Source of the DNA: Candidatus Latescibacterota bacterium | GTDB lineage: Bacteria > Latescibacterota > UBA2968 > UBA8231 | Assembly (NCBI GenBank): GCA_965248355.1 | Contig: OZ252098.1 | Coordinates: 1,184,001-1,248,000 of the forward strand | Direction of reading: 5' to 3' | DNA: 64,000 bases | In this document: piece by piece, positions 5,344 to 56,995 of the stretch | Layout: every line of letters starts with the position of its first letter | Numbering within the stretch: the stretch's first letter is position 1 | The notes under the pieces: generated by a model | What the model was told of the DNA's origin: nothing | Database searches by the model: none | What the model saw: the letters and a program-made list of their open reading frames with translations, nothing else | Position numbers and translations under genes: made by a program

Positions 5344-5823
5344 TTGCCCGAACGCCCGTCCTTCGCCCAGTTCCTGATCGGGGCGGCCGCCCTCGAACGC
5401 CCGTCCTTCCTCTACGCCTACCTGGTGATGTGGCTGCACCTGCTCATCAGCGTGCCGGTCCTCGTCTTCCTGGTCGAGGTGCCGCTTCTGGACGCCCTGC
5501 CGCAGATGGCCATCAGCTCCCCGAGCCTGGGGATTCTCCTGTACGGCCTGGGTTCGAAGAGATACGGCTTCCTGGTGAACCTCCTGCCCTACGCCGTCGG
5601 CCTCCGCCGGGCCATCGATCCGGCCGCCCTGGACTACACGTTCCTGCTCCTGGCCGTCATCATCTGCCTCACCTCCACCTACCTGCTGCTGTCGGAGGAA
5701 TACCGGCTCTACACCAGTGGACAGGTCGAGGATGAGCGCGGCCTGCCCCTTCGCGTCACCCTCTCCGTGGGGGCCGCGGTCCTGCTGCTGCTGCTCTACG
5801 GCCTCCACCTCCAGGCCCGCTAG
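5344..5823 (+). CDS. Hypothetical integral membrane protein (~4-5 TM helices)
   Basis: Several hydrophobic stretches, GC3-rich codons, fills the gap between recG and mraY; TTG start; stop abuts mraY stop. Confidence 0.7.
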   Translation: MPERPSFAQFLIGAAALERPSFLYAYLVMWLHLLISVPVLVFLVEVPLLDALPQMAISSPSLGILLYGLGSKRYGFLVNLLPYAVGLRRAIDPAALDYTFLLLAVIICLTSTYLLLSEEYRLYTSGQVEDERGLPLRVTLSVGAAVLLLLLYGLHLQAR

Positions 5824-6930
5824 TCAGCGGATCTTCAGGGTCGCCAGTCCCATGAGCGCCAGAATGCCGGCGATGATCCAGAATCGGATGACGATCTTGG
5901 TGTCGGCCAGCCCGCACGCCTGGAAGTGGTGGTGCACGGGGGCGCTGCGGAAGAACCGCCGCCCCAGCCAGCGGATGCCGATCTTCTCCTGGATCACCAC
6001 CGAGAGCGCCTCGCCGACGAACACCCCTCCGACGATGAGGAACAGGAACTCCTGCTTCACCAGCACGACCACGGTTCCCAGCAGCCCGCCAAGGGCCATG
6101 GATCCGGTGTCCCCCATGATGACGTTGGCCGGGTAGGAATTGAACCACAGGAAGCCGAGACAGGCGCCGAAGACGGTGCAGCAGATGATGGTGACCTCGC
6201 CGGCCCCGGGGGTGAAGGGAAAGATGAGGAAGTCCGAGATGCGCGCGTGACTGGCCACGTAGGCGAAGACCCCGTAGACGGCCACGGCGAAGGCCGCGGG
6301 CACCACGGCGAGCCCGTCGATGCCGTCGGCGATGTTCACGGAGTTGGCGATGGCCACGAGGGTGAAGGCGATGAAGGGGACGTAGCCGAGGCCGAGATCG
6401 ATGACCGGGGTCTTGACGAAGGGCAGGAAGAGCTTGGTGGCCAGACCCTCGGGCATGGGCGACAGGGGCTCGATGACAAAGGCCAGGCCGAAGGCCAGGC
6501 CGAAGAGGGCCTGGAGCACGAGCTTGGCCGATTCCGAGAGCCCGCGGTCGCTCGTGCCGTGGCGGACTTTCAGATGGTCGTCGAGGTAACCGAGGCCCGC
6601 GAACCAGATCACCGCCCCCAGGCTCATGAGGACGAAGGTCTCGTGCAGGCGGCACCACAGCAGACAGCCGGCGAGCACCGAGGCCACCAGCAGGGGGCCG
6701 CCATAGGTCTTGGGGGCGCGGGACTTGGCCGGAGGAAAGTCGAAGCTGCGGCGCGTATCGCGGCGGCCGCCGCGGTAGAGGGCGAGGATGACCCGGTCGC
6801 CGAGGAGGATGGTGAGCACCAGGGCGGTGATGGCCCCGCCGATGGCGCGGAAGCTGATCGAGTCGAGCAGCCGCAGGAAGGACAGGGCCTCGACGCTTTC
6901 GTTCAGGTAGGTTCCCAGATAGTAGAGCAT
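5824..6930 (-). CDS. mraY: Phospho-N-acetylmuramoyl-pentapeptide transferase (divergent MraY)
   Basis: ISFRAIGG, YLDDHLK, ANSVNIADGIDGL, FLWFNSYPA, MGDTGSMALG, APVHHHFQ; the usual GTPTMGG motif reads RAPKTYGG. Confidence 0.9.
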   Translation of the reverse strand: MLYYLGTYLNESVEALSFLRLLDSISFRAIGGAITALVLTILLGDRVILALYRGGRRDTRRSFDFPPAKSRAPKTYGGPLLVASVLAGCLLWCRLHETFVLMSLGAVIWFAGLGYLDDHLKVRHGTSDRGLSESAKLVLQALFGLAFGLAFVIEPLSPMPEGLATKLFLPFVKTPVIDLGLGYVPFIAFTLVAIANSVNIADGIDGLAVVPAAFAVAVYGVFAYVASHARISDFLIFPFTPGAGEVTIICCTVFGACLGFLWFNSYPANVIMGDTGSMALGGLLGTVVVLVKQEFLFLIVGGVFVGEALSVVIQEKIGIRWLGRRFFRSAPVHHHFQACGLADTKIVIRFWIIAGILALMGLATLKIR

Positions 6931-6934
6931 GGGA

Positions 6935-8989
6935 TCAGCAGGCCGATTGGCCCATGCGCTCCAGGCCCTCGCGGACTCGGCGGGACAGGGAGTCCAGGCT
7001 GTCCTTCAACGGGAAGGCCGGTTCGAAGTTCGGTGAGGTGGACAGGATCTGCTCCACGTCGGCGGCCACCTCCTCCGGCTGCAGCACCCGCCGCTCCAGC
7101 AGGCCCTCCAGGGCGTGCACCGTCTCCTGGCGGCAGCGCCAGTCCGGATGCACGTAGAACCGGCGCAGGTCCGCCAGGCGCTCGGCGCGGCAGGTGACCC
7201 GGCCGAGGGCCCCCAGGGCGGCTGCGACCACGGAGCTCACGCCGTCGCCCAGGGACTCGACGAGGGCCGCTTCCACCTCCTCGTCCCCCGGAGTCGCCTG
7301 CTCGCCGAGGAGGCGGGCGGCGGCGACGCGCACCTCGAAGTAGGGATCATCGGAGAGGGCCTCCAGGACCGCGGACCGGCCCTGCGGACCGGCCCGCCGC
7401 AGCCCGATCATGGACAGGGGGAAGTCGATCGCGTTCCGCCGCAGGATGCCGGGGTGACGGTAGTCGCCGCCGGCGAGGCGCTGCAGCGGGCTGGCCGGGG
7501 TGCGGTCGCCGATCAGGGCGAGCACCAGGGGCAGGCGTTCCTCCCAGGCCAGCAGGCCCACGAGCTTGACCCCCACGTTGCGGCGGCCGTAGGGGATCTC
7601 GTACCAGCTCTCCGACGCCAGGTTCCGGTCGGCCTGGTAACGCAGGAAGGCCAGCTCCATCGGGCACAGGGCCTCCACCCCTCCCGCCTCGGCGATCCGG
7701 CTCCGCACGTGGCGCAGCAGACGATTCGGATCGGCCGGCACCCCGGCAGACCCGGCCACGGGGTACTCGAGTCTCAGGGGCGGCGGACGGAGGCCCTGCC
7801 TCAGGCTGTCGATCTCGCCGAGGATGGCCTCCAGGCTGTCGCGCCGCGGCGCCGAGGCGGCGGCGGCGGCCATGCGCCCGCGCTCGTCCGGTCCGTCGAG
7901 GAGCTCGAGGATGGCGCCGGCGAGACGGGACCCGCTGACCGCCAGATCGACGCGCCCATCCATGCGCCAGCTGGCCTCCTCGAACAGAACCCGGGCGGCT
8001 CCGAGCCCCTGAAGGGCCATGGCGTTGACCGCCTGGTGATCCTCGGCCGCCGTCGACAGCGGCAGGATCACCGCCGGCAGACCGCACACGCCGACCTCGG
8101 TGAGGGTGCTCATGCCGCCCCTGCAGACCACGAGGTCGGCAGCGGCGTAGGCGGTCTCGATCTCCTCCATGTAGCCGAACCGGCGGTACCACTGCTCGAG
8201 ATCCTGGAGGCCGGTCCGCTCCAGGGCGCCGGCGGTGTCCGCCACGGGGTCGTAGTCCTCCGAGACGTGGGCCCCCGTGCCGTGCAGGATGAGCAGCTCG
8301 TCGGCCCGGTTCGCCAGCAGCGGCAGGGCTTCGACCACGGCCCGGTTGATGGTCCTCGACCCCTGCGATCCTCCGAATATGAAGACGACGAGGCGATCTC
8401 CCTCGATCTCCCAGACCGCCCTCGCTCCCTCCCGGTCGAGGCGGGTCAGCTCGCGGCGCACCGGGAACCCGACCACCGCCACCCGCTTCATGTCGAACCA
8501 GCGGGCGGCTTGCTCGAAGACGACGCCGATGCGGTCGGCGATGCGACCGACGGCCTGGTTCAGCAGCCCGGGATGGGCGTTCGGCTCGTAGGCGAAGACC
8601 CTCGCCCGGCTCAGTCCGACCTTGCGCAGCAGACCGCTGGCGAACAGGATCGGAGCGCTCACGAAACCACCGGTGGCGAAGATCACATGGGGCCGGAACC
8701 GCAGCAGGACGAGGACCGCTCCGGCGACGCCGGCGGCCAGGACGAGGCTGAAGCGGAGCAGCGGCCAGGCGCGACGGGTGCGCGGAAAGGGCCTGGAAGG
8801 CAGCCGCCGCAGCGGATAGCCCCGGGCCGGCACGACGCGCTCCTCCAGCCGCCCCCGGACCCCCACGTACAGGAATCGAGCCTCGGGCTGGCGGCGCCGG
8901 ATCTCGTCGGCCACGGCCAGCGCCGGGTACACATGGCCGCCGGTACCGCCGCCGGTGAACAGGTATCTCACGGACGAAGGGCCGATCAT
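6935..8989 (-). CDS. murG: MurG-like GlcNAc transferase (GT28) fused to a C-terminal ~285 aa HEAT-repeat-like domain
   Basis: GGGTGGHVYPA, GGFVSAP, YEPN, GFPVR, GGSQGS, RGGMSTLTE, DHQAVNA in first ~400 aa; then LSDDPYFEVRVAAARLLG, LGDGVSSVVAAALGALG, HPDWRCRQETVHAL. Confidence 0.88.
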   Translation of the reverse strand: MIGPSSVRYLFTGGGTGGHVYPALAVADEIRRRQPEARFLYVGVRGRLEERVVPARGYPLRRLPSRPFPRTRRAWPLLRFSLVLAAGVAGAVLVLLRFRPHVIFATGGFVSAPILFASGLLRKVGLSRARVFAYEPNAHPGLLNQAVGRIADRIGVVFEQAARWFDMKRVAVVGFPVRRELTRLDREGARAVWEIEGDRLVVFIFGGSQGSRTINRAVVEALPLLANRADELLILHGTGAHVSEDYDPVADTAGALERTGLQDLEQWYRRFGYMEEIETAYAAADLVVCRGGMSTLTEVGVCGLPAVILPLSTAAEDHQAVNAMALQGLGAARVLFEEASWRMDGRVDLAVSGSRLAGAILELLDGPDERGRMAAAAASAPRRDSLEAILGEIDSLRQGLRPPPLRLEYPVAGSAGVPADPNRLLRHVRSRIAEAGGVEALCPMELAFLRYQADRNLASESWYEIPYGRRNVGVKLVGLLAWEERLPLVLALIGDRTPASPLQRLAGGDYRHPGILRRNAIDFPLSMIGLRRAGPQGRSAVLEALSDDPYFEVRVAAARLLGEQATPGDEEVEAALVESLGDGVSSVVAAALGALGRVTCRAERLADLRRFYVHPDWRCRQETVHALEGLLERRVLQPEEVAADVEQILSTSPNFEPAFPLKDSLDSLSRRVREGLERMGQSAC

Positions 8990-9082
8990 GTCGTCGCCGC
9001 GGGGGGGCGCGGGCGACTGCGTCGGAGGGGGAGCTGCGAGGGAGGGAGGCCCCTCGCCCGGGGTGGCTCAAGGGTCTGGTCC

Positions 9083-9111
9083 AGTATACACAGCGGTCCC
9101 AGGTCCGACAA
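9083..9111 (-). promoter_or_regulatory. Candidate promoter for murG-mraY
   Basis: Minus strand TTGTCG (9111-9106), 17 nt, TATACT (9088-9083). Confidence 0.55.
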
Positions 9112-9124
9112 GCTCCGCCACGGC

Positions 9125-9874
9125 TCAGATCATGGTCACCAGGTCCGCCGGCAGCCATCCGCCGAGACCGTTGTCCAGGCGGACCAGGAGCCACTCCCCC
9201 TCGCGGCGCTCCACGGTCACCTTCGTGCCCTCGTGAACGACGAACACGGGGGTCTGCCCGAGGTCGGGGCCGCCTCTCGCCTGTCCCTGGATAGCGGTGA
9301 CCACCGCCTCGGAGAGGGTGAGCTCGCGGTGCAGGCGCGTGCCGGCGAAGGCTCCGAACCCCAGGATCCCGCCGAGGCAGAGGCCGAGGGCCACCACCGC
9401 GGCCGGACCGGAGCCGCGCAGCAGGCGCCAGCTGGCCGCGGCGGCCAGCCCGAGCAGGCTCAGGGAGAGTCCGGCGAAGAGCTCGTTCGAGGTCGGCCAG
9501 AGGTAGAGCTCGTAGAGGAAGGCGCCGTCCTCTTCCTCTTCGCGGTCCCGCTTGATGCGGCGCAGGAACCGCAGGTTGGCCAGCACGTCCTCGTCCCTGG
9601 GCGCCACTCTCCGGGCGCGCTCGTACCAGACGATGGCCTCGCCCAGGCGGCCGTCCTTGAAGCAGGCGTTTCCGAGGTTGTAGAACAGGCGCTCGTCCCG
9701 GACCCCGGTGCCGGACGCCGCCAGGTAGCGCTGCCGGGCGCCGGCGAACTCGCCTCGCCGGTAGAGATCGTTGCCCTCGGCGTAGAGCCCCGCGGCGGCG
9801 GACTGGGCGGCGGCCTCGCCCACGGCGAGAACCGTGAACAGTCCCGCCGCCAGGAGGCGCAAGGGCCGGATCAC
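9125..9874 (-). CDS. batE: BatE-like TPR + SH3 protein
   Basis: GTG 9874 overlaps batD stop (GTGA); signal peptide, YAEGNDLY..G, YNLGNA.FK.G.LGEAI.WYERA, two TM helices, C-terminal SH3b (HEGTKV...WLLVRL.NG..GWLP). Confidence 0.8.
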   Translation of the reverse strand: MIRPLRLLAAGLFTVLAVGEAAAQSAAAGLYAEGNDLYRRGEFAGARQRYLAASGTGVRDERLFYNLGNACFKDGRLGEAIVWYERARRVAPRDEDVLANLRFLRRIKRDREEEEDGAFLYELYLWPTSNELFAGLSLSLLGLAAAASWRLLRGSGPAAVVALGLCLGGILGFGAFAGTRLHRELTLSEAVVTAIQGQARGGPDLGQTPVFVVHEGTKVTVERREGEWLLVRLDNGLGGWLPADLVTMI

Positions 9875-11658
9875 GACAGCGCCTTCCGGAGGAGGGCCAT
9901 CGCCTCCTCGGTCTCCGCGAGCAGTTCCTCCCGGGTCCCGCGGTCGGTGTTGGCGGGCGCGTAGCGGCCGAACTCGCAGCGCTCCAGTACGGCGTCCACC
10001 CGGTCGACGAGGGCGGGGTCGACGCCCCGGTCCTCCAGCTCCTGCCGGCAACGGTCCCGGGTCAGACCGGGCGCCGGCCGGTTTCCCTGGTCGGCGATGA
10101 AGGCGACCACGGCCTCCTGCAGGGCGCCGTGAAAGCCGTCGCCCTCCGCCGCTCTCCGGCCCGCTTCCCGCAGGCGGCCGGCCAGCTCGCCGCCGGACCG
10201 ACGCCGGCGAGCGTAGGCCGCATCCTTCTCCAGCCTGCGGCGATGGCGGTGCCAGGAGACCAGGGCCAGGTAGCCCAGGGGCAGCAGGGCGTGGGCGAAC
10301 CAGTAGTAGCCGCTGCGGTACAGGGGTGAGGCGGCGCCGATGTGCGCCACGTCGGGCTTGATGTGCCGGATGTCGCGTCCGAGCCGCTCGATCTCGCGCC
10401 GCGTCAGGTCGTACCCCTCCCCGGCGGCGGCTGCGGCGCTGTCCGGGCGGCTGTGAATCGCCATGGGCGCGCTCGAGGCCGTGCGGTACCGGTGGGACGC
10501 GGGATCGAAGTAGGCCACTCTCAGGGCCGGGATCTCCAGACGGCCTTCGCGCCCGGGGATCAGGATGTACTCGAGCCTCCTCGCAGCCCTGTACCGGCCG
10601 TCGGCGGAGCGTCCTTCCTCCACCTCCACCTTGGGCTCGTAGACCTCGAAGCCCCGGGGATGCAAGGCCGGCTCCGGGATGCTCTGCACGTTGCCGGTGC
10701 CCGTGATCGACACCTTCAGGGTGACCGGATCGCCGACGCGCACATCCCGGGGCCGGGCCTCGACGGAGATGCCGAACTCGCCCACGGCCCCCGCGAAGTC
10801 TCCGGGCCTCCCCTGTTCCGGTAGAGGTCGGACGTGGATGGAGACGGGCTCGCTGCGGATCATCAAGGCTCGACTGCGTCCGAAGATGGGGTCTTCCAGC
10901 AAGGAGCAGGTCAGCCCCAGGGGATCGATGACCTGGGAGCCGGAAGCGGTGGGGAACAGCACGACGTGGCGCAGGGGGGCCACCTGGAACGGCAGCCCCT
11001 GGATCACCTCGCGATGGGGGTCCAGCCGCGAGGCGGCGAACAACTCCTTGACCCAGAACCCGGTGTACTCCGGCACCTCGGCGAGCCGGGGGCCGCGCAG
11101 GTGGTACCGGTAGCACAGATCGAAGCGCACGTTCACCTGCTCTCCCACGTACGCCGTGTCCCGGTCGGCCTGCACCCGCACGAAGAGGTCGTCCTCGAGC
11201 TCCCGCTCTCCGGCCTCGCCGTCTCGCTCCGGCGTCCGCGCGGCGGTCTTGCCGAGGACGTGCACCTCCACCTCTTCCGTGGTCAGGACCTCGCCCTCCG
11301 CCTGCAGACGCGCGGGACCGAGCGTGAACCGGCCCGGGTTCCGGGCGTAGAGGGTGTACTTCAGCTCCCGGGTGAACCGCGCCCCCCTGTGGTCGTGGGA
11401 CTCCATGTCCATCACCGAGGGACCATGGACGATGAACTCCCGCAGGTCGATGGTGGGCGCCGCCAGGTGGCTCAGGGGGGTCTCCGCGCTCAGACGCAGG
11501 GTCAGCTGGATCGGTTGAGACGCGGAGACCTGGCTGCGGTCCACGGCCAGGGTGAACTCGATCTCCGGCCGGGCGGGTCCTGCCGACAGGAGCACGAGGG
11601 CCGCCATGAATTGCAGTCGGCGGGCCGGAAGGCGGGCCGGTACAGGGTTACCAGTCAC
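9871..11658 (-). CDS. batD: BatD family protein
   Basis: Signal peptide, repeated Ig-like modules (PGRFTLGPA, AYVGEQV, FAGAVGEF, VGDPVTL..SITGTGN, YFDP...YRT), DIRHIK, TM, C-terminal RYAP; start GTG 11658 or ATG 11607. Confidence 0.85.
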   Translation of the reverse strand: MTGNPVPARLPARRLQFMAALVLLSAGPARPEIEFTLAVDRSQVSASQPIQLTLRLSAETPLSHLAAPTIDLREFIVHGPSVMDMESHDHRGARFTRELKYTLYARNPGRFTLGPARLQAEGEVLTTEEVEVHVLGKTAARTPERDGEAGERELEDDLFVRVQADRDTAYVGEQVNVRFDLCYRYHLRGPRLAEVPEYTGFWVKELFAASRLDPHREVIQGLPFQVAPLRHVVLFPTASGSQVIDPLGLTCSLLEDPIFGRSRALMIRSEPVSIHVRPLPEQGRPGDFAGAVGEFGISVEARPRDVRVGDPVTLKVSITGTGNVQSIPEPALHPRGFEVYEPKVEVEEGRSADGRYRAARRLEYILIPGREGRLEIPALRVAYFDPASHRYRTASSAPMAIHSRPDSAAAAAGEGYDLTRREIERLGRDIRHIKPDVAHIGAASPLYRSGYYWFAHALLPLGYLALVSWHRHRRRLEKDAAYARRRRSGGELAGRLREAGRRAAEGDGFHGALQEAVVAFIADQGNRPAPGLTRDRCRQELEDRGVDPALVDRVDAVLERCEFGRYAPANTDRGTREELLAETEEAMALLRKALS

Positions 11659-12397
11659 GGGCCTCGTCGCCCCCCCCGCGGGCGCGGTAACGCCGCTCCT
11701 GGGCCTCCTGCTCCCGATCGCGGAAGGCGTCGAGCAGGCGCTCCGCCTCCTCGCGGTCCAGGCCGCCCTCCTCCGCCGGGGGCGGCGCCTGCGCCTCGCC
11801 GTCCTCGTCATCGGGCTCCGGTGGCCCCTCGTCGGGCTCCGGAGAGGAGGATGGCCGCTGCTGCTGTTGCTCCTCCCCTTCCGGGGGATCCCGCTGATCC
11901 CCGTCCGGGGAATCCTGCTCCCCTCCGTCCGGGGGATCCTCCTGATTCTCACCGCCCTGCGGCTGGGGCGGCGGCAGCCGCTGCAGGGCGAGCTCCAGGT
12001 TCGCCTTGGCGTCGGCGTCGCCGGGGACCCGCTGCAGGGCCTGCCGATAGGCTTCGGCGGCGGCCGGATAGTCCTGCAGCTGGAAGTGGGTGTTCCCCTT
12101 GTTGTAGTGACCGCTCGCCGACAGGGCCGGGTCGGCGGCGGCGGCCACCCTCTCGAACTCGCGCAGGGCTCTCTCGAAGTCGCCGAGCCGGAACTGGGCG
12201 TCGCCCACATTGAGATGGAGGCGAGCCGACTCCGGCCGCTCCACGAGGGCCTCCTTGTACATCTGCAGCGCTTCCTCGTAGCGTCCCGCCTCGTACAAAG
12301 CGCGGGCGGCCTCGTTCCGGGAGACGGCTCGATCGCCGATGCTGCGCGCCTGCGCCGCAGAGGCCGCGAGCAGCAGGACCAGAGCCAGCGCTCTCAC
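11648..12397 (-). CDS. batC: BatC-like TPR protein with acidic Q/E/P-rich linker
   Basis: GTG 12397 overlaps batB stop; signal peptide, TPRs (YNKGNTHF, ADAKANLELA), low-complexity linker, EEAERLLDA...RDW C-terminus. Confidence 0.85.
   Translation of the reverse strand: MRALALVLLLAASAAQARSIGDRAVSRNEAARALYEAGRYEEALQMYKEALVERPESARLHLNVGDAQFRLGDFERALREFERVAAAADPALSASGHYNKGNTHFQLQDYPAAAEAYRQALQRVPGDADAKANLELALQRLPPPQPQGGENQEDPPDGGEQDSPDGDQRDPPEGEEQQQQRPSSSPEPDEGPPEPDDEDGEAQAPPPAEEGGLDREEAERLLDAFRDREQEAQERRYRARGGGDEARDW
11867..11938 (-). repeat. Three imperfect 24-bp tandem repeats within batC
   Basis: Encode DPPDGGEQ / DSPDGDQR / DPPEGEEQ. Confidence 0.6.
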
Positions 12398-13422
12398 GCG
12401 AACCTCCCCCGCCACTCCCTCCGGCCGCGGGACCGCTCGGAGAGCAACCCCTCGGCCAGGAAGCAGGCCAGGGCCAGGGCCAGGGGGATCTGGAAGCGTT
12501 CCTCGTAGCGGGTGAAGCGCTCGGCTCCGAGCTCCTTCTGCTGCAGGCCGGAGATCCGGTCGGCCACGTCCTCCAACTCCCGGCCCGTGAGACTGCTGCG
12601 CCAGTAGGCGCCCTCCCCGGCGGCGGCCACCTCGCGCAGGGCGGCCTCGTCGAGACGGGACTTCACATAGTTGCCGTCGCGGTCCTTGTGGTAGTCCAGG
12701 CGGCTCCCGTCTTCGGACCCCAGGGGAATCAGGTCCCCCTCCGGCGAGCCGACGCCGATGCAGAACAGGCGGACTCCCCGGTCGGCCAGCTGACCCGCGG
12801 CGTCGGCGGCCGAGCCCGTGTGCGCCTCGCCGTCGCTGAAGAGGACGGCCACCTTGTCGTTCCGGTCCTCGGGGTCGAAGACCCCCCCCGCCAGCTCGAG
12901 GGCCCGGGCCAGGGAGGTCCCCTGGGACGGAATGGCGTTCACGTCCACCGCGCCAAGGAGCAGGCGCAGAGCCGCGGTGTCGAGGGTCAGGGGACACTGG
13001 ACGTAGGCGTTGGCGGCGAACACGACGAGAGCGACACGGTCGCCCTGGAGGTCGTCCAGCAGCTTGCCCATGGCCTGCCGCGCCCGTTCGAGCCGGTTCG
13101 GACGCACGTCCTCGGTGAGCATGCTGCGCGACAGATCGAGAAGGAGGACCACGTCCACGCCGCGCCGCTGGGCCATCTCCAGGCGCACCCCGAACCGGGG
13201 GCCCGTGAGGGCCAGCGCCAGCAGCCCCAGGCCGGCCACGAGGAGGGCGGACTTCACGTGCTGCCGGGTGCGGCTCACGCTCCGGATGAGGCGGGGAGCC
13301 ACGGCGGCATGGGCCAGGCGCTCGAGGTCGCGCCGGCGGCGGCTGTGGGCCCAGGCCGCGAACCAGGCCGCCAGCGGCACCAGGAGCAGCAGCCATTGGT
13401 TGTGCTCGGCGGCGAAGCGCAT
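12394..13422 (-). CDS. batB: BatB-like VWA domain membrane protein
   Basis: N-terminal TMs, ALTGPRFG, MIDAS DLSRSM, PNRLERA, CPLTLD, GTSL, FSDGE, SRLDE..L, C-terminal TM. Confidence 0.88.
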   Translation of the reverse strand: MRFAAEHNQWLLLLVPLAAWFAAWAHSRRRRDLERLAHAAVAPRLIRSVSRTRQHVKSALLVAGLGLLALALTGPRFGVRLEMAQRRGVDVVLLLDLSRSMLTEDVRPNRLERARQAMGKLLDDLQGDRVALVVFAANAYVQCPLTLDTAALRLLLGAVDVNAIPSQGTSLARALELAGGVFDPEDRNDKVAVLFSDGEAHTGSAADAAGQLADRGVRLFCIGVGSPEGDLIPLGSEDGSRLDYHKDRDGNYVKSRLDEAALREVAAAGEGAYWRSSLTGRELEDVADRISGLQQKELGAERFTRYEERFQIPLALALACFLAEGLLSERSRGRREWRGRFA

Positions 13423-13426
13423 GGTC

Positions 13427-14398
13427 TCAGGGCAGGCTGCGGAAGCGGGTGCGCGACAACAGGAAGTCCCCTGCCAGGGCCAGGAACCCCGGCCACAGGA
13501 ACAGGGGGTACAACTCCGAGTACTCCAGGTGAACCTGGCTGGTGACCTCGGTCTTCTCCAGGCGGCCGATCTCGGCGTAGATCTCCTCCAGCTTCTCGCC
13601 GCTGGTGGCGTGGTAGTACTGGCCGCCCGTGGCGGCGGCGATGGAGCGCAGGGTCTCCTCGTCGAAGTCCACCCCCCGGCCGCGGACCTGCGGCGGCGCC
13701 CCGACGCCGATGGTGTAGACGCGCACGCCCACGGCGGCGGCGGCCTCGGCCGCCGTCTGCGGATAGATCTCCCCGGCGTTGTTCACGCCGTCGGTGAGCA
13801 GGATGGCGACGCGGCCCCGGCGCCCTTCCCCACCCGCGTCTCGCAGTCGGTTGGTGGCGTTGATCAGGGCCATGCCGATGGCGGTGCCGTCCCAGGTCTC
13901 GTGGGCGATCTCGATCTCCTCCAGGAACTGCAGGAGCACGTCGTAATCGAGGGTGAGGGGACACTGGGTGAAGCTCTCGGCGGCGAAGACGACCATGCCG
14001 ATGCGGTCGGTGTGGCGGCCGTGGATGAAGCGGGCCACCACCTCCTTGGCCACCGCCAGCCGGCCCGCGGGACCCAGGTCCCGGGCCCGCATGCTGCCCG
14101 AGACGTCCAGAATGAGCATGATGTCCACGCCCTCGGCCGAGACGTCCACGATGCGCTCGCCGCTCTGCGGACGGGCCAGGGCGGCGACGAGACAGGCCAC
14201 GGCCAGGAAACGGGCTACGGGCAGGGCCCGGCGGGCCACGGCCCAGGGACCGGCCGGCAGGCCCCGCAGGTCGCCGACCTGGGGATAGCGGACGGAGCCC
14301 CTCAGCCGCTGGCCGTGGCGCCGCTGCCGCCACCCCATCCAGGGCAGCAGCAGAAGAAGGAGCAGGAAGGCGGGGTCGGCGAATCGAAGCTCGTCCAT
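13427..14398 (-). CDS. batA: BatA-like VWA domain membrane protein
   Basis: FADP.FLLLL, ALARPQ, MIDAS DVSGSM, CPLTLD, GTAIG, LLTDGVNNAG, VYTIGVG, DEETL..IA..TGG.YY.A. Confidence 0.9.
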   Translation of the reverse strand: MDELRFADPAFLLLLLLLPWMGWRQRRHGQRLRGSVRYPQVGDLRGLPAGPWAVARRALPVARFLAVACLVAALARPQSGERIVDVSAEGVDIMLILDVSGSMRARDLGPAGRLAVAKEVVARFIHGRHTDRIGMVVFAAESFTQCPLTLDYDVLLQFLEEIEIAHETWDGTAIGMALINATNRLRDAGGEGRRGRVAILLTDGVNNAGEIYPQTAAEAAAAVGVRVYTIGVGAPPQVRGRGVDFDEETLRSIAAATGGQYYHATSGEKLEEIYAEIGRLEKTEVTSQVHLEYSELYPLFLWPGFLALAGDFLLSRTRFRSLP

Positions 14399-14401
14399 GG
14401 G

Positions 14402-15370
14402 TCAGGAGCCGCCTTCGGAAGTCGCCGCCGCCCCGGCCGCCACCAGGGCCCGCAGCTGCTGCCCGGCGCCGGCCACCAGCCGCCGGCCCTCCTCCGGCGC
14501 CGCCGCCGCCTCGGGCCCTGGGGGCTCGGCCCGGGCGAACTTGACCAGGTCCGCCGCCTGCAGGAAGTCGATGATGCCTTCCCGGGTGTCGGCGTCGGGG
14601 GGAGACGGAGCCCGGCGCAGGTCGGCGGCGATCTCGGAGGTGGTGCGGTCCAGGCCGTCCACGGACAGCCGGTCCTCGAGGAAGCGGCGCATGACCTCGG
14701 ACAGACGGGTGTAATAGACCTTCAGGGCCCCGCGCTGCAGCAGCCCCGACTCGGCGATGAGGACGAACTCCCTCTCGTAGTCCACCGGAGCCGGCGGCGG
14801 GCTCGGGAGCTCGGTTGGCTCCTTGGGGCGGCGCAGCAGGAACCGGCCCGCCAGCCAGGCCAGGAGCACGGCCGCGGCCGCCGCCAGGATCCCGGCGAGC
14901 CACAGGGGGATGCCGCCGGGGATCGCCATGGGCGGCTTGATCTCCCGCAGCGCGTCACCCTCCTCCGGATCACGGGCGGACACGATCTCCATGGGAATCG
15001 ACGGCGACGTGAGACGCGCGGTGTCGGAGGCCGCCCCTACCACCAGGACCTCCAGGGCCGGGATGGCGCCGGTATCGAGGGTGAAGGCGGTCAGTTCGTA
15101 GCGGCGCTCGTCGACCTCGAGGCCGCCGGCTGCGGCCCTCGTGGCCGGCGCCGACTGGGAGCGCACGATCCACGAACCCAGCTTCTCCTGCAGCTCCGGG
15201 AACAGGGAACGCGAGGAGGCCGGACGCTCGACGCGCAGGAGCAGGGCCACGGGATCGCCGAGACGGACCCTCCCCGTGTCGACCTCCGCCCTCAGGAGCG
15301 GCCGGTCGGCGTGGACCGGGGAAGCGACGGCGGCGGCGACCAGGGCCGCGCCGCGGAGGAAAGCTGTCAT
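14402..15370 (-). CDS. Bat-operon-associated membrane protein (Ig-like periplasmic domain, TM, helical cytoplasmic domain)
   Basis: Signal peptide, LGDPV.L, FTLDTG.IP, EIKPP, TM, YYTRLSEVMRRFLE, TTSEI, ADLVKFAR; typical of the gene preceding batA. Confidence 0.75.
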   Translation of the reverse strand: MTAFLRGAALVAAAVASPVHADRPLLRAEVDTGRVRLGDPVALLLRVERPASSRSLFPELQEKLGSWIVRSQSAPATRAAAGGLEVDERRYELTAFTLDTGAIPALEVLVVGAASDTARLTSPSIPMEIVSARDPEEGDALREIKPPMAIPGGIPLWLAGILAAAAAVLLAWLAGRFLLRRPKEPTELPSPPPAPVDYEREFVLIAESGLLQRGALKVYYTRLSEVMRRFLEDRLSVDGLDRTTSEIAADLRRAPSPPDADTREGIIDFLQAADLVKFARAEPPGPEAAAAPEEGRRLVAGAGQQLRALVAAGAAATSEGGS

Positions 15371-15383
15371 CGGGCCGGACCCG

Positions 15384-16826
15384 CTACCCGTCGGCCGGCT
15401 CCACGGCTTCCGAGGCCTCCTCCATCGGGTTGGACACGTCGTCCAGGCTCAGATCGAGGTCCTCCACCGAGTCCTCTTCGACGGTGACCACGGTGCCCAG
15501 GTCGGCGCGCATCGCGTAGGCCTGGCCGTCGCCCGTCGTCGAGCCGACGCGGACTTCCACCGTACGGCCTCCGGTGAGATCGACGCGCACGGACAGCCGC
15601 GGCGAGTCGAGACCGAAGGGAGCCAGGGGAAGGCTCCCGTCGGCCGCTCCATCCTGGACGAAGCCCTCCGCCTCCAGATCGTTCAGGTCGTTCACCAGGC
15701 TGGTGAACCGCCAGGCCTTGGGCTCGCGCCCGGCGGCGTCCACCAGGCCCCAGGTGCCGGCGCTGTCCCGGGAGGCGGTGAAGACCCGCTCCCCCCGGCG
15801 CCGCAGCTCGATGCGGGAGATCTCCTCCTCGGACAGGGCCAGGAGCTTCCTCTCCCGCAGATCCGACAGCGGCTTGAGCAGCTCGTTGACGACGGTGGAG
15901 TCGACGACGAACACGTGGGGCCGGCTGGAGTCGCGGGCGAAGCGGTCGCCCCCGCCGGCCTCGGCGCCGACCTGCAGGCGCTTCTCGGCCCGGTCCTCGC
16001 CGATCCACAGGGTCACCTCCGCCAGGGCCGAGCCATCCTGCAGGCCGGCCGCCGACAACTCGTCGGCGGTGGGCTGCTCGAAGGCGATCCGGCTGGTCTC
16101 GGAATTCCGCAGCCGCGACAGGACGTCGTCCACCTCGTCGTCGTCGGCTTCCCTGGCCAGGGGCTGGTCGAGACGCCAGCCCCCATCCTGCCGGTAGAGC
16201 TCCACCCGGCCGCCGGGCCGGTCGAGCCTCAGGCCCCTGACCTCGTCCTCCTCGAAGGCCAGCAGCCGCCGGTCGCGCAGGTCGAAGAGGCCCTTGTCGA
16301 GGTTGTCGAACCGCCAGGCGCGGACCCTCAACACCTCCGGGTTGTCCCCCGAGCGCTGCAGGTAGGTGAAGCGCTCGGTGGGCGTGTCGTCGCCGAAGCG
16401 CAGGGTGTCGAAGACCGCGGGCGACTCCCCGGCGAGCTCGAGCAGCACCTGCAGGCGGGGCCGCTCCAGGCCGTAGGCGGTCAGCCGCCCCGCGTCCCCG
16501 GCCACGGCGGCGCTGTCCTGCAGAGGCTCGCCCTCGATCTCGGTCTCCCGCAGGTTCCTCAGGTAGCGCTCCACCGCCTGGGCATCGGCGTCGGTGGAGA
16601 CGGGGCTCGTCAGGCGCCAGGACTCCTCCCCCTTCTCCAGGACGGCCACCGTGTCGCCGCGGTCGATGGTGAGGCGCCGGGCCTCGTGATCGCTGAAGTC
16701 CAGGAGCTGGCGGGAGCGTTCCGCTTCGACCTGCCGCTGCTCCCCTCCCTTGATCTCGTAGAAGTAGACGAAGCCCAGCAGGGCCACGAAGATCCCGCTG
16801 ATGATGAGGTTCGTCTTCAGTCCCAT
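15384..16826 (-). CDS. DUF4340-like periplasmic protein, multi-repeat
   Basis: N-terminal TM anchor; repeated W.L..P....AD, YGLERP/FGLDSP, LRDRRLL/LRERKLL; follows GldG-like gene. Confidence 0.8.
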   Translation of the reverse strand: MGLKTNLIISGIFVALLGFVYFYEIKGGEQRQVEAERSRQLLDFSDHEARRLTIDRGDTVAVLEKGEESWRLTSPVSTDADAQAVERYLRNLRETEIEGEPLQDSAAVAGDAGRLTAYGLERPRLQVLLELAGESPAVFDTLRFGDDTPTERFTYLQRSGDNPEVLRVRAWRFDNLDKGLFDLRDRRLLAFEEDEVRGLRLDRPGGRVELYRQDGGWRLDQPLAREADDDEVDDVLSRLRNSETSRIAFEQPTADELSAAGLQDGSALAEVTLWIGEDRAEKRLQVGAEAGGGDRFARDSSRPHVFVVDSTVVNELLKPLSDLRERKLLALSEEEISRIELRRRGERVFTASRDSAGTWGLVDAAGREPKAWRFTSLVNDLNDLEAEGFVQDGAADGSLPLAPFGLDSPRLSVRVDLTGGRTVEVRVGSTTGDGQAYAMRADLGTVVTVEEDSVEDLDLSLDDVSNPMEEASEAVEPADG

Positions 16827-16851
16827 GTGCGGTGCCTCTCGTGCATGTGGC

Positions 16852-19800
16852 TCAGGCCGCGGCGGCGGCCGGGTGGAAGTCGCGGCGAATCCATACGAGG
16901 ATGCAGGCGTTGGCGATGCTCAGCCCCGCCAGCACCAGTTGCAGCGTCGGCTCGGGGACGACGACGAAGGCCAGCCCGGCGTTGGCGGCCAGGGTCGCCA
17001 GGGCCGGCAGCCAGGCCCGGGAATCTCGCTTGTAGAGGCCGTAGCTCAGCCCCCAGCAGAGCAGGCCCAGGACCACGCAGCCCTCGCCGCGCCAGAGGCT
17101 GGCCTCGCCGAGTCCGATGACGCCGAGGATGTAGTACCAGGTCCCCAGGGCCAGGAAGTTGTAGACCAGCCAGCTCACGAAGCCGCTGACATGGGTCCCG
17201 TAGCCGCGGCGCAGCATGATGACAAAGCCGGAGAGGGCCACGGCGAAGGGCAGGACGAAGACGGAGATCCAGAGGATCACGCTGCCCGCCGTGCCCACGA
17301 GGTTGATCGGGTTGAAGCGCGGCTGCTTCGGCGGGATCGTGAGGCTGCCCTCCCCCTCGGCGAGCCAGCGGACCGCGGCGGCCATGAGCTCGCCGTTGGC
17401 CTGTTGTCCGAAGTACTGGTTTCGGGCGAAATCGGCATCTCCGAAGACCACGATCCTCGTCTCGTCGCCCTCCGCCGCCGAGTCGGCCTCGGCGCTGACC
17501 GCCACCGCCAGGGACAGGGGACCGGGCCGGTCGGTCTCCGGATCGAAATCGATCGATCCTCCTTCCTCGCCCGACAGCACGGCCAGGTCGGACTCCCCCC
17601 AGGCGTTGCGGTCGGTGAAGGCGAGGGCCTCCACCCCGAAGCCGCCCGAGGCGGCGCTGACCGAGCGCGCCATGGGGAAGTAGCTCATCTGGCCGCGGAC
17701 GGCGCCCTCGGTGATCGGGTGGTCGCCGTAGCGCAGGACCACCGGCACCGAGACGTCGGTGCCGAGGAGCTGCCCGAGGCCGCTCAGGTCGACGACGAAG
17801 TCATGGCCGATGTCGATGTCGTACTCGTCGAGCAGGAGGTCCTCCAGACCGCTGTCCGGGACCGGGTCGACCAGCAGCAGCAGGTCGCCTCCCCGCTCCA
17901 GGAACCGGCGCACGCCCTCCACCTCCGCCGCGCTCAGCGGACTCTGCGGCCCCAGGACGGCCAGCACCTGCACCAGGGTCAGATCCTCCGTACCGGGACG
18001 CACGGCGTCCCGGATCTGCAGGTTCATCTCCTTCAGCCGCCCGTTGAGGATGCTGAAGCCCTCGCCGTCGACGTCGGTGAGCCCACCCTCCCCATGGCCC
18101 CCGACGAAGCCGATGACGCGCTCGTCGGCCGCCAGGGCCCGGCGGATGGCGTTGCTCAGAGCTTCCTCGCTCTGCTCGGTGAAGCGCTCGGTGACCACCT
18201 TGCCGGCGCCCGTGACCTCGACGATGGAGGTGCCCCGTTCGCGGATGCCGTACCGCCGCACCAGGAGGGCGTCCTTCTGGGGGTCGACGGTCTCGAAGTC
18301 GAAGCGGCGGGAGCGGTATCCGTACTCCTCGGCGATCTCCTGGAAGCGCCCGCCCTCCATGTCCGACATGAAGGTGCGGACCTGGATGTACTTGCCCGTG
18401 TCGCCGGCCTCTCGCAGCAGCTCCAGGCTCTCGGGGGCCAGGGTGAACAGCTCGTCCTCGGTCAGGTCGATGCGCCAGTGGTAGCGGTCGCCGAGGTAGT
18501 TCAGCAGGACGAGAACACCCAGGGAAAGGACCACGCCCAGACCGGCGGCGGCCAGGTCGCGCAGGCTCCAGCGGCCGGACCGGGAGACGACGACGAAGCC
18601 GGCCAGGGCGATCGCCGCCGGGTACAGGATCACGGTGATCCAGAAGATCCATTCCGATTGCGTATCGGTCAGGGCGATGGGGTTGAAGCCCGGCGCCTTG
18701 GGACGGATGGAGATCAGGGCCTCGTCCTCGGCCAGCCAGCTCACCGCGTTCAGGGCCAGGTCTCCGTTGCCCTGGGAGTCGAAGTAGCGGTTGCTCGCGA
18801 AGTCGGCGTCGCCGAAGACCACGAGCCGGCCCCCCGAGGCGGTGTCGGCCACCGCCGCACCGACGCCGACGGGTCCGCGCCGGTCGGCCTCGTCGAGGCG
18901 GACGGTGCGCTCGCCCCCCGCGCCTTCGCCCAGCACGGACAGGTCGGTCTCCGCCCAGCTCTCCGAGCTGGTCCGGGCCAGGACCGCGGCGCTGGACCCG
19001 TTGGCGGTTACCACGGAGGAATCGAGAGCGACCGAGCGGGCCAGCTCGTAGAAGGTCATGACCCCGCCGCGGTGGCGCCGGGCGATGGGGTGGACGTCGT
19101 CGTAGGTGGTGACCACGGGGATGGTGAAGTCGAGGCCGAAGAGAGATCCGATACCGCTGGTATCGATGACGAAGTCGTCGCCGGTGACCACGCCCCACTC
19201 CCCCGCCAGGGCCTCGAGACCGGTCTCCTGCAGGGCGTCGGCCAGCAGCAGCACGGAGCCGCCGCTGTCCAGGTAGCGGCGGACGGCGTCGACCTCGTGG
19301 TCCAGGAAGGGCGACCGGGGGCCGGCTATGATCAGCACGCGGCAGTCCCCGGGGACCCGGGCCTCCCGCGCCAGGAACAGGGAATCGCTCACCACGTAGT
19401 CGATCTCCCGGAGGCGCTCGGCCAGCCGCCCCAGGTCCGACTCGAGGCTGCCGCTGCCCCGCTCGCCGTGGCCGACGGTGAAGTAGACCCGATCCCGCCG
19501 GTCCCGGAGGACCTTCAGCATGGCGTTGGTGATCTCCTTCTCCGTCAGCTCGGTGAGGCTCAGCCGCTCGTCGCCGGCGGCCACCACCAGGGTGTTGTAG
19601 GCGCGCACCCCGTACTCCTGGGTCCGCACCGGATCGCGGTCGGGATCGACGAATTCGAAGTCGAAACGCCCGCCGCCGTGCACGGCGTACTGCTCCAGCA
19701 GCCCGCGCAGCTCCTCGTCCTCGCCCCCTTCCATGAAGGCCAGGGCCTCCACTTCCTTCTCCAGCGCCTCCAGGCTCTCCACGGTCAGGGGCGCCAGGCT

Positions 19801-20091
19801 GTGCAGCCCCCCTTCGGTCAGGTCGAGCCGCTGCGGATAACGGTCGGCGAGGAAGTTCACCATCCCGAGGATGGCCAGCACCAGGAGGCCTCCCCAGAAG
19901 GCGTTGAGCCAGCGACCGTACCGGCGGAACAGCTCGGGGTCGAGCACCGCCGAGGCGGCCACCAGAAGCGCCCCGAGGGCGGCGTTGGCCGCGGGCAGCC
20001 AGGTGGCCTCGGGCTCGAGGAGCATGGCCAGCCCGGCGGCGGCGAGAAGAGCCGCTCCGGCCAGGCTGGCGAAGGTCGAATAGGCCTTCAT
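16852..20091 (-). CDS. GldG-like ABC transporter auxiliary protein with two tandem GldG modules and extra C-terminal TMs (1079 aa)
   Basis: ATG 20091 overlaps permease stop (ATGA). Two copies of DLT....LAP, GHGE, VVFGDADF..N.YF....NG.L....V.WLA. Confidence 0.85.
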   Translation of the reverse strand: MKAYSTFASLAGAALLAAAGLAMLLEPEATWLPAANAALGALLVAASAVLDPELFRRYGRWLNAFWGGLLVLAILGMVNFLADRYPQRLDLTEGGLHSLAPLTVESLEALEKEVEALAFMEGGEDEELRGLLEQYAVHGGGRFDFEFVDPDRDPVRTQEYGVRAYNTLVVAAGDERLSLTELTEKEITNAMLKVLRDRRDRVYFTVGHGERGSGSLESDLGRLAERLREIDYVVSDSLFLAREARVPGDCRVLIIAGPRSPFLDHEVDAVRRYLDSGGSVLLLADALQETGLEALAGEWGVVTGDDFVIDTSGIGSLFGLDFTIPVVTTYDDVHPIARRHRGGVMTFYELARSVALDSSVVTANGSSAAVLARTSSESWAETDLSVLGEGAGGERTVRLDEADRRGPVGVGAAVADTASGGRLVVFGDADFASNRYFDSQGNGDLALNAVSWLAEDEALISIRPKAPGFNPIALTDTQSEWIFWITVILYPAAIALAGFVVVSRSGRWSLRDLAAAGLGVVLSLGVLVLLNYLGDRYHWRIDLTEDELFTLAPESLELLREAGDTGKYIQVRTFMSDMEGGRFQEIAEEYGYRSRRFDFETVDPQKDALLVRRYGIRERGTSIVEVTGAGKVVTERFTEQSEEALSNAIRRALAADERVIGFVGGHGEGGLTDVDGEGFSILNGRLKEMNLQIRDAVRPGTEDLTLVQVLAVLGPQSPLSAAEVEGVRRFLERGGDLLLLVDPVPDSGLEDLLLDEYDIDIGHDFVVDLSGLGQLLGTDVSVPVVLRYGDHPITEGAVRGQMSYFPMARSVSAASGGFGVEALAFTDRNAWGESDLAVLSGEEGGSIDFDPETDRPGPLSLAVAVSAEADSAAEGDETRIVVFGDADFARNQYFGQQANGELMAAAVRWLAEGEGSLTIPPKQPRFNPINLVGTAGSVILWISVFVLPFAVALSGFVIMLRRGYGTHVSGFVSWLVYNFLALGTWYYILGVIGLGEASLWRGEGCVVLGLLCWGLSYGLYKRDSRAWLPALATLAANAGLAFVVVPEPTLQLVLAGLSIANACILVWIRRDFHPAAAAA

Positions 20092-20870
20092 CGGCGCCAG
20101 CGCCTCGACTCGAGGACGCGCGTGGTGAGGAACAGGCAGAAGAAGATGAAACTCAGGTAGAAGAGAACGTCGGCGGTGTCGATGACGCCGCGCTGGAAGT
20201 CCTGCAGGTGCTGGATGATCGACAGGTAGGAGAGCAGCTTGGCCGCCGTGGGACCGGCGAAGCTCGCCGACCAGTCGATCAGCCACAGGAGCAGCAGCGC
20301 TCCGAAGGAGAGCAGCACGGCGACGATCTGGTTCTCCGTGAGGGACGAGGCCAGGACGCCGACGGCGACGAAGGTGCCTCCGAGGAGCAGGTAGCCGAGA
20401 TAGGCGGAGCCGATGGGCCCCCAGTCCGGGTCGCCGTAGACCTCGAGGATGAGGCAGAAGACGAGGGTCAGGGCGACGATGATGGTGTAGAGGGTGAGGG
20501 CCGCGAAGAACTTGCCGAGCAGGACCTGCACCGTCGAGATGGGTGAGGTCATGAGCAGCTCGATGGTGCCGCTCTTCTTCTCCTCCGCGAAGAGCCGCAT
20601 GGTCAGCATGGGCACCACGAGGAGCCAGATGAAGTCCATGACCGCGAAGAACTGGGTGACCACCATCTCGTTGAGGTTCAGGCTGGGCATGGCCCCCTGC
20701 ATGAACTGCTGGCGCTGACTGAACTGAAGGCACCAGAAGTTGAACTGCATCAGGATGTTGCGGAACAGGTACCCGGACAGGAACAGGAAGACGCCGGCGA
20801 TCACGTAGGCCACGGGCGAGACGAAATAGGAGCGCAGCTCCTTGGTGTACATGGCGAGGAAGTTGCGCAT
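20088..20870 (-). CDS. ABC-2 permease, GldF-like
   Basis: KELRSYFVSPVAY, PMLTMRLFAEEKKSGTIELLMTSP, LGKF, SSLTENQIVA, FQRGVID. Confidence 0.92.
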   Translation of the reverse strand: MRNFLAMYTKELRSYFVSPVAYVIAGVFLFLSGYLFRNILMQFNFWCLQFSQRQQFMQGAMPSLNLNEMVVTQFFAVMDFIWLLVVPMLTMRLFAEEKKSGTIELLMTSPISTVQVLLGKFFAALTLYTIIVALTLVFCLILEVYGDPDWGPIGSAYLGYLLLGGTFVAVGVLASSLTENQIVAVLLSFGALLLLWLIDWSASFAGPTAAKLLSYLSIIQHLQDFQRGVIDTADVLFYLSFIFFCLFLTTRVLESRRWRR

Positions 20871-21832: not shown

Positions 21833-21846
21833 GGATATGGCTCCCT

Positions 21847-22725: not shown

Positions 22726-22729
22726 GGCC

Positions 22730-23725: not shown

Positions 23726-23790
23726 GGAATCTCAGCACCCTCCCCGGGCGGTCGTGGTCTCGAGCGGTGTCATTTCCCCGTCGTGAGAAC

Positions 23791-48815: not shown

Positions 48816-52910
<4,095 letters not shown>

Positions 52911-52949
52911 ATCCCTCTCATGCTCGAGTGCGGTGGTTTTCCGTGCGTC

Positions 52950-56780: not shown

Positions 56781-56995
56781 TCCTTCTTGTGCCGGTTCGG
56801 CAAGGCGGTCAGGGCCTGCCGCGATTCATGCGCGAGATCACGGATGCCCGCCCTGATCGAGGGGCATGCGTAAACCGGCGCTTCAAGGGTTGAAAAATCG
56901 ATTGGGAATGAGCCTGTACCGGCGCCGCCCGGGCCGGGCCAGCGTGGACCCCTCGACCGACAAGCCGGTCGGAAGGCAGCCGTGGAAGACGGCTG

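Follow-up and report, generated by a model that had tools for sequence, protein, structure and literature searches.

Why should the last cytoplasmic enzyme of lipid II synthesis carry a long helical tail, and with what does that tail interact? We met this question in a 64,000-nucleotide stretch of a Candidatus Latescibacterota genome (assembly GCA_965248355.1, contig OZ252098.1, positions 1,184,001 to 1,248,000; hereafter the window), where a preliminary description made from the letters alone had read the frame at 6935-8989 as MurG joined to a C-terminal HEAT-like domain. That reading was borne out: the frame is continuous and encodes 684 amino acids (aa) with Pfam GT28 and HEAT_2/HEAT matches, and the helical-repeat strings that had been quoted are present in its translation. 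The membrane steps in the synthesis of peptidoglycan precursors are the work of MraY, MurG and MurJ, all of them antibiotic targets, and whether the three act as a physical complex is still debated on the basis of cross-linking and two-hybrid experiments with the separate proteins. The gene, its parts and the gene that follows it are:

6935-8989, minus strand: murG-HEAT open reading frame (ORF), 684 codons without an internal stop, TGA at 6935-6937
7796-8989, minus strand: MurG-type GT-B glycosyltransferase body, residues 1-398 (Pfam GT28 N and C domains, TIGR01133, Foldseek)
8579-8590, minus strand: YEPN replacing the HEQN acceptor (lipid I) loop ('hEQNa' to 'yEPNa' in the alignment)
8456-8470, minus strand: GFPVR replacing GNPVR ('GnPVR' to 'GfPVR' in the alignment)
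7730-7795, minus strand: Pro-rich linker, residues 399-420 (GLRPPPLRLEYPVAGSAGVPAD), a dip to 69-71 in the predicted local distance difference test (pLDDT) of the AlphaFold2 (AF2) model
6938-7729, minus strand: HEAT-like alpha-solenoid, residues 421-684 (264 aa; Pfam HEAT_2/HEAT, alignments, AF2 model)
5824-6930, minus strand: mraY, 368 aa, 267.9 bits on TIGR00445 against a cut-off of 192.05

The HEAT-linked MurG/MraY cassette is a real, conserved and apparently undescribed variant of a known enzyme system, and the window is one more member of it, with an unusual acceptor loop. The best explanation for the tail, to which we give a probability of roughly 0.55, is that it is a docking adaptor in the cytoplasm by which MurG, together with MurJ where the two are fused, is kept at MraY for the hand-over of lipid I.

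The tail belongs to the HEAT repeat family by both profile score and alpha-solenoid fold. HEAT_2 (PF13646) matched residues 540-628 (E = 3.3e-9, 37.3 bits, cut-off 27.7) and HEAT (PF02985) matched residues 541-563 (25.8 bits, cut-off 23.5). Folded alone from a 65-row alignment, residues 400-684 gave a confident all-helical solenoid of 14 helices (pLDDT 92.6, predicted template modeling score (pTM) 0.89), and the AF2 model of the whole protein (85 full-length relatives, pLDDT 93.4, pTM 0.91) consisted of a GT-B body that ends near residue 398, a Pro-rich linker of lower confidence and the all-helical tail. Because solved MurG chains are 364-365 aa long and the TIGR01133 profile has 353 positions, the extension of about 285 aa that had been described is genuine, with the refinement that its folded solenoid is confined to residues 421-684, after a linker at about 399-420. 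Matches to the tail from Foldseek against the Protein Data Bank (PDB) and from VIA-align were generic HEAT, designed armadillo and alphaRep solenoids only, with no natural homologue indicating a ligand, and the ESM Atlas likewise yielded nothing but generic HEAT clusters, with a recognition that fell short of the usual mark. As modeled, the tail is a generic protein-binding solenoid fold. Family alignments nevertheless gave it conserved motifs of its own (RNxGVKLxGL, GGDxxxxGxxRRN, DPYxEVR, W..R and FxPxFPLK), with family-specific invariant residues, in tail numbering, at N72, G74 and K76 (RNxGVKLxGL), at R118, R119 and N120, and at Y151 and E153 (DPYxEVR).

To be counted as this module, a protein had to give a full-length match of at least 260 bits; the generic HEAT repeats present in every genome reach at most 48 bits. 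At E <= 1e-3, a word-indexed search with residues 400-684 returned 102 clusters. Nearly every one is 660-725 aa long and combines the GT28 N and GT28 C domains with HEAT_2, and their names are purely automatic ("glycosyltransferase", "hypothetical protein" or the name of the MurG enzyme). With phmmer, 1.84 billion representative sequences yielded 310 matches at E <= 1e-3, of which 111 remained at E <= 1e-10. Pfam architectures were obtained for 32 of 150 listed phmmer matches. Eight of these 32 proteins are triple fusions, seven in the order MurG-MurJ-HEAT (1191-1333 aa) and one in the order MurJ-MurG-HEAT (1219 aa); the other forms are MurG-HEAT proteins of about 650-780 aa and stand-alone modules of 280-335 aa. 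A MurJ-HEAT protein (P0160, 771 aa) was not counted as a separate architecture, as its MurJ match begins at profile position 5 and the protein may be N-terminally cut.

Within the window's own family (f1), a first scan located the module in 23 of 24 genomes, within uninterrupted frames some 670-750 aa long, and a wider profile scan found it in all 62. Elsewhere in the phylum the full-length module was present in families f3 (3/3 genomes), f12 (1/1) and f13 (4/4), and it was not found in f2 (0/29), f4 (0/21) or f5 to f11, where generic HEAT matches of at most 48 bits were the only ones. A scan for loci with a 5-row alignment, taking one genome per species, gave 122 relatives, from which 80 loci were kept and their ORFs searched with purpose-built hidden Markov models. 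The closest of these carry Latescibacterota or Gemmatimonadota labels, and the others are labeled Myxococcota, Syntrophobacteraceae, Desulfobacterales, Desulfarculia, Glassbacteria and Planctomycetota. The architecture first described from one gene was thus recovered throughout its family and in other phyla.

In 78 of the 80 loci, mraY lies directly after the module ORF on the same strand, at a distance of -40 to +432 nt, and in 22 of these 78 the two overlap by 4 nt. The remaining two are L102, which ends inside the module at a contig edge, and L035, where no ORF was called, yet a tblastn match lies just upstream of mraY. What precedes the module is less constant: 72 of the 78 loci encode MurG-HEAT, three the HEAT module alone, two MurJ-MurG-HEAT and one MurG-MurJ-HEAT. 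In the window, the module with its RNxGVKLxGL, RRN and DPYxEVR motifs is likewise the last coding element upstream of mraY; the junction reads TGA tccc ATG, so that mraY starts 4 nt past the murG-HEAT stop codon. The sister family f3 separates the two partners. In its three genomes the module is a gene of its own (296-390 aa) adjoining a true MraY, whereas MurG is canonical (365-370 aa, 297-311 bits) and, in the one genome whose neighbors were checked, lies between ftsW and murC. From this family, in which the module stays beside mraY and a canonical MurG sits in the dcw cluster, it follows that the module's constant partner gene is mraY and not MurG.

MurG itself differs as well where the module is attached. 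Each of 71 sampled genomes had exactly one MurG match at E <= 1e-30. When 115 MurG domains were placed in a quick maximum-likelihood tree, one branch (Shimodaira-Hasegawa-like approximate likelihood ratio test, SH-aLRT, 98) divided it into 81 HEAT-linked sequences, drawn from all the labeled phyla, and 34 canonical ones. Judged by these sequences, the HEAT-linked MurGs are a distinct and widely spread subfamily with a conserved module of about 260 aa.

The frame that encodes the window protein is intact. The G+C content around it is 71-74%. Contigs from two independent studies align to it without a gap, one (X5, record 24) over 5800-9150 with 14 substitutions and the other (X13, record 7) over 6734-9150 with 9; the only indels listed in independent contigs, at 5807 and 9006, are both outside the murG-HEAT ORF. 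Since two independent assemblies are free of indels in the ORF and the gene is fused in 62/62 family genomes, the fusion is genuine and not an assembly error. The preliminary description had named two outcomes that would speak against a real fusion, a stop codon lost in assembly and an extension encoded separately in all relatives; neither was observed, and the extension is a separate gene only in a minority of relatives. An RNA-library contig (X17, record 10; 6603-7374) bridges the junction of murG-HEAT and mraY, and further RNA-library contigs cross the boundary between enzyme and tail. These contigs are compatible with expression of the two genes as a single unit, without being proof of it.

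The N-terminal 398 residues are clearly of the MurG type. Glyco_transf_28 matched residues 10-155 (E = 9.5e-23, 81.2 bits, gathering cut-off 26.2) and Glyco_tran_28_C matched residues 201-339 (E = 9.3e-27, 94.5 bits, cut-off 22), and the six best Foldseek matches to the full AF2 model were all MurG chains (E = 3.6e-19 to 1.7e-16), with target-normalized TM-scores (TMt) of 0.71-0.87 for the top matches 1f0k, 3s2u, 1nlm and 7d1i. On the NCBIfam murG equivalog model TIGR01133, the protein scored 203.5 bits, below the cut-off of 250.25. All HEAT-linked MurGs examined scored 196-244 bits, and because both they and the window protein fall short of the cut-off, the window enzyme is filed by its sequence as a member of a divergent MurG subfamily and, under the NCBI rule, not as an equivalog. 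The step assigned to it would be the conversion of lipid I and UDP-GlcNAc to lipid II. In the alignment to solved MurGs, GGTGGH (G-loop), GGSQGS (GGS loop), RxGxxTxxE (conserved Glu) and DHQxxNA are retained; these we take to be the donor-site motifs, under names that in part follow PMC8256705.

Two other motifs are altered, as had been noted from the sequence and as alignment to the solved enzymes confirmed. The acceptor loop, HEQN in MurG, reads YEPN in the window enzyme. This form is confined to the window's close clade (L024-L042), where the pattern is [YF][ES]P[ND], whereas distant HEAT-linked MurGs retain HEQN. In contrast, almost every HEAT-linked MurG, a split one among them, has a sequence of the G[YF]PVR type; in the canonical MurGs of the same class it is GNP[TI]R or GIPVR. 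We infer that replacement of N by F or Y in GNPVR is a mark of the HEAT-linked subfamily and that HEQN to YEPN is a later, clade-specific change. Because the HEQN loop is called critical for accommodating lipid I in the available text of PMC8256705, the change in the window's clade probably concerns acceptor capture. Three tree rows (L028, L029 and L060) have YSPD, with all four HEQN residues changed; L028 (G001) and L029 (G009) belong to the window's genus, and all three nevertheless keep the arrangement of the window, with the enzyme joined to the module and mraY coming next.

The partner gene encodes an authentic MraY. The Pfam family Glycos_transf_4 has two matches in the genome, the window mraY and a WecA-like protein; the latter scored 32.5 bits on the mraY model, on which the window MraY is the sole match above the curated cut-off. 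The window MraY is colinear with solved MraYs. Scores in the phylum fall into three classes: canonical (380-408 bits), HEAT-linked (248-306 bits) and divergent (111-128 bits, families f2 and f4). Eight signature positions distinguish HEAT-linked from canonical MraY, one of which, G318, lies in cytoplasmic loop E just ahead of the HHH motif. Some sequences depart further from the family pattern. In the first cytoplasmic loop (residues ~70-78), the window MraY has APKTYGG in place of the (G)TPTMGG of solved MraYs and of the HEAT-linked consensus. The best MraY match in f2 and f4 genomes (e.g. G025:C1:3400423-3401277) is below the 192-bit cut-off and away from murG. In four Myxococcota-labeled loci (L045, L046, L054 and L062), the MraY that follows MurG-HEAT is 455-459 aa long and has an insertion of about 85-90 residues that splits the profile match in two.

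Is this MurG an additional enzyme or the one on which the cell depends? The genome is a single contig of 5.50 Mb, 95.7% complete, and the murG model matched it once, at the window gene. A second, canonical murG in the dcw cluster, which the preliminary description had raised as something to look for, was not there. That cluster is located as follows:

G000:C1:1742001-1762000 (L002): dcw cluster with rsmH, ftsI, murE, murF, ftsW, murC, ftsQ and ftsZ, ~560 kb from murG-HEAT

Here murC directly follows ftsW, and the window murG lies outside the cluster and not between these two genes. None of mraY, murD, murG, murB, ddl or ftsA was found among the 15 ORFs scanned at this site. MraY, MurC, MurE, MurF, FtsW, FtsI, FtsQ and FtsZ are all present in the genome, and FtsA and MreB are encoded elsewhere in it. 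The ftsA gene is at C1:893866, and two more Mur-ligase genes are at C1:243426 and C1:3329046. The MurJ family has weak matches only, of 41.2 and 27.7 bits, at C1:942320-942934 and 4435218-4435811 (L104, L105).

Other carriers are alike. In five of them, two of which are Desulfacinum infernum DSM 9756 and Desulforhabdus sp. TSK, no gene other than the HEAT-linked one gives a strong MurG match (196-234 bits; next best at most 50), and its neighbor is the only MraY above the cut-off. For 40 of the 41 genomes in a sample of the Desulfacinum class, the top MurG match fell within a frame of 710-1264 aa, and no match was above the cut-off; the 20 loci kept from this sample comprise 11 MurG-HEAT and 9 MurJ-MurG-HEAT. 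As the window gene is the sole MurG homologue, its neighbor is the sole MraY, the dcw cluster has neither and other carriers share this arrangement, the window MurG is the single, housekeeping MurG of the genome, and murG-HEAT and mraY are a two-gene operon outside the dcw cluster.

These observations suggest how the docking adaptor might work. The module would be cytoplasmic because it follows either the soluble MurG or the C-terminus of MurJ. The C-terminus of MurJ is itself cytoplasmic. From there the module would dock MurG, and MurJ where fused, to the cytoplasmic face of MraY, and lipid I leaving MraY would be handed directly to MurG; the tight translational coupling of the two genes would favor assembly of the complex during synthesis. 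YEPN in the lipid I loop may then mean a relaxed or altered capture of the acceptor. Separate MurG and MraY of E. coli cross-link within one complex, according to the available text of PMC2170320. The gene context points to MraY as the binding partner of the module at about even odds. Complex prediction with the alignments of MraY and the HEAT module gave 0.27, 0.36 and 0.29 in three runs, against a mark of 0.32, values that weigh on neither side of the question of binding. It could be speculated further that the module physically bridges a lipid II assembly line that is hard-wired, in which MurG, and in other lineages MurJ as well, is clamped on MraY, lipid I is retained and, in the window's clade, HEQN has been freed to drift to YEPN, and in congeners to YSPD; we regard this bolder form as rather doubtful.

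Several points weigh against docking to MraY. The case for contact is built wholly on gene order and fusions, and as the three genes move as one cassette, their adjacency cannot tell binding of MraY from co-expression. The pTM of 0.91 for the full model suggests a solenoid packed rigidly on MurG, which an intramolecular role fits equally well, and the conserved Arg, Asp and Asn residues may be structural repeat ladders and not a binding groove. The RNA-library contig may stem from DNA in the library, and a two-gene contig is not proof of one transcript. Finally, the canonical rows of the MurG tree are from the window's phylum only, and neither its rooting nor a direction of transfer follows from it.

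One alternative is that the module acts within MurG, as a rigid brace, an oligomerization surface or a regulatory lid, without touching MraY. The compactness of the full model (pLDDT 93.4, pTM 0.91), the altered GNPVR residue that accompanies the module in almost every HEAT-linked MurG and the oligomers proposed for canonical MurG in the available text of PMC8256705 are all in keeping with such a role, but it is hard to reconcile with the three f3 genomes, where the module is separate beside mraY and a canonical MurG is in the dcw cluster, or with the MurG-MurJ-HEAT proteins, where about 450 residues of membrane protein intervene between MurG and the module, and we consider it unlikely. Another possibility is that the module serves to bring some other protein to the site of MurG and MraY, such as MurJ, the SEDS/PBP synthases, the Mur ligases that deliver UDP-MurNAc-pentapeptide, or MreB, FtsA or FtsZ. 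MurJ is fused in both orders, L048, L050, L053 and L057 have an unfused murJ immediately upstream, FtsA and MreB are present in the window genome, and E. coli MurG, MreB and MraY cross-link together (PMC2170320, available text). Across the loci examined, however, no such gene is as constantly linked as mraY, and the window genome keeps the module despite having only weak MurJ matches (41 and 27.7 bits). Recruitment of another partner seems improbable to us as well.

The preliminary description had concluded that the domain scaffolds or regulates a specialized lipid II-like synthase. Scaffolding remains plausible in view of the solenoid fold and the linkage to mraY, whereas the specialized synthase found no support. 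A second enzyme making a modified or non-peptidoglycan glycolipid would account for the low TIGR01133 score (203.5 against 250.25 bits) and for YEPN, with YSPD in congeners. It would also have to be the only MurG of a genome that encodes MurC, MurE, MurF, FtsW, FtsI, FtsQ and FtsZ, with a bona fide MraY above cut-off as its partner, and distant HEAT-linked MurGs keep HEQN; we judge it very improbable. That two genes were merged by sequencing or assembly error is hardly credible at all. One relative does have the gene in two overlapping frames of 499 and 222 aa followed by mraY (L017, G020:C71:18001-27000), which could be a frameshift or assembly error, but independent contigs have no indel in the window ORF and the fused gene, with frames about 670-750 aa in length, recurs in all 62 genomes of the family as well as in many other phyla. 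Docking at MraY is thus the reading that we retain.

Compared with known systems, the window enzyme shares the two-Rossmann GT-B fold and the donor-site motifs of canonical MurG (E. coli 1F0K/1NLM, P. aeruginosa 3S2U, A. baumannii 7D1I; TIGR01133). It differs in its added C-terminal solenoid of about 285 aa and its score under the equivalog cut-off, in having G[FY]PVR in place of GNPVR and, in the window's clade, YEPN in place of HEQN, and in its position upstream of mraY outside the dcw cluster, whereas canonical murG lies between ftsW and murC. Natural Mur chimeras have been surveyed (MurE-MurF, MurC-Ddl, MurC-MurB, MurG-MurC, MurD-FtsW and MraY-MurG; PMC10214165), and the available text of that survey takes them as signs of multi-enzyme complexes. 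They are likewise fusions within the peptidoglycan precursor pathway, but the part fused in the window is a non-enzymatic HEAT adaptor, joined in relatives by the flippase MurJ; in the available text of the survey there is no HEAT or MurJ fusion, "HEAT" occurring 0 times and MurJ once, in a figure legend. We found no description of a natural MurG-HEAT or MurG-MurJ fusion in the literature searched, which did not cover subscription journals.

The E. coli MurG-MraY-MreB complex has the same proposed outcome, in that MurG is kept at MraY for consecutive steps; its components are separate proteins, seen by cross-linking and immunoprecipitation (PMC2170320, available text). In the window, a dedicated module and an obligatory gene pair may hard-wire that association. 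Solenoids of the PBS-type HEAT and alphaRep kind (E. coli YibA, 1OYZ; artificial alphaRep, 3LTJ and 4XL5) have the same repeat fold and match Pfam HEAT_2, and in VIA-align the module gave Z scores of 17.7 for 4xl5_C and 14.9 for 1oyz_A. Unlike these generic solenoids it has its own invariant motifs, an inserted GGDxxxxG loop and a fixed genomic partner; the fold match is uninformative on the ligand.

An adaptor domain that always accompanies mraY and is fused to MurG, to MurG and MurJ, or to neither is a natural "Rosetta stone" in favor of coupled steps, and the fused proteins, including those of cultured Desulfacinum and Desulforhabdus strains, offer stable material for structures and coupled assays. 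If the bridge should prove true, the natural fusions would provide structural studies with a ready-made, stable MraY-MurG(-MurJ) complex for a hand-over that is hard to capture with the separate E. coli proteins. There is also a consequence for annotation: with scores below cut-off and vague names, MurG may be wrongly scored as missing in whole lineages.

The surroundings of the operon contain one further candidate element:

9083-9111, minus strand: promoter-like site TTGTCG-17-TATACT upstream of the murG-HEAT start, a consensus match only

Two such consensus matches were observed against 0.2 expected in shuffled sequence. Upstream of the operon, 9125-23731 on the minus strand is a long Bat/MoxR-type cluster that encodes a MoxR AAA_3 ATPase, a DUF58 protein, a GldG-like ABC auxiliary protein of 1293 aa, a DUF4340 protein, two VWA/BatA-type proteins, BatD and a TPR-SH3 protein. 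Farther along, 32908-56825 (minus strand) is an ordinary region of ribosomal-protein, SecY, EF-Tu and EF-G genes, and within 48816-56825 two long ORFs of 1378 and 1292 codons may, by size and position only, be rpoC and rpoB. Among relatives, one genome of the stand-alone HEAT family (G030, L014:7806-10597, minus strand) has two YkuD L,D-transpeptidase genes and Tol-Pal-like genes (OmpA-family, PD40 repeats, TPR/YfiO) just upstream of HEAT-mraY. In L048:7893-10739 and L057:7903-10773 (both minus strand), a second, large protein of 948-956 aa with HEAT-like repeats is encoded just downstream of the cassette, convergent to mraY.

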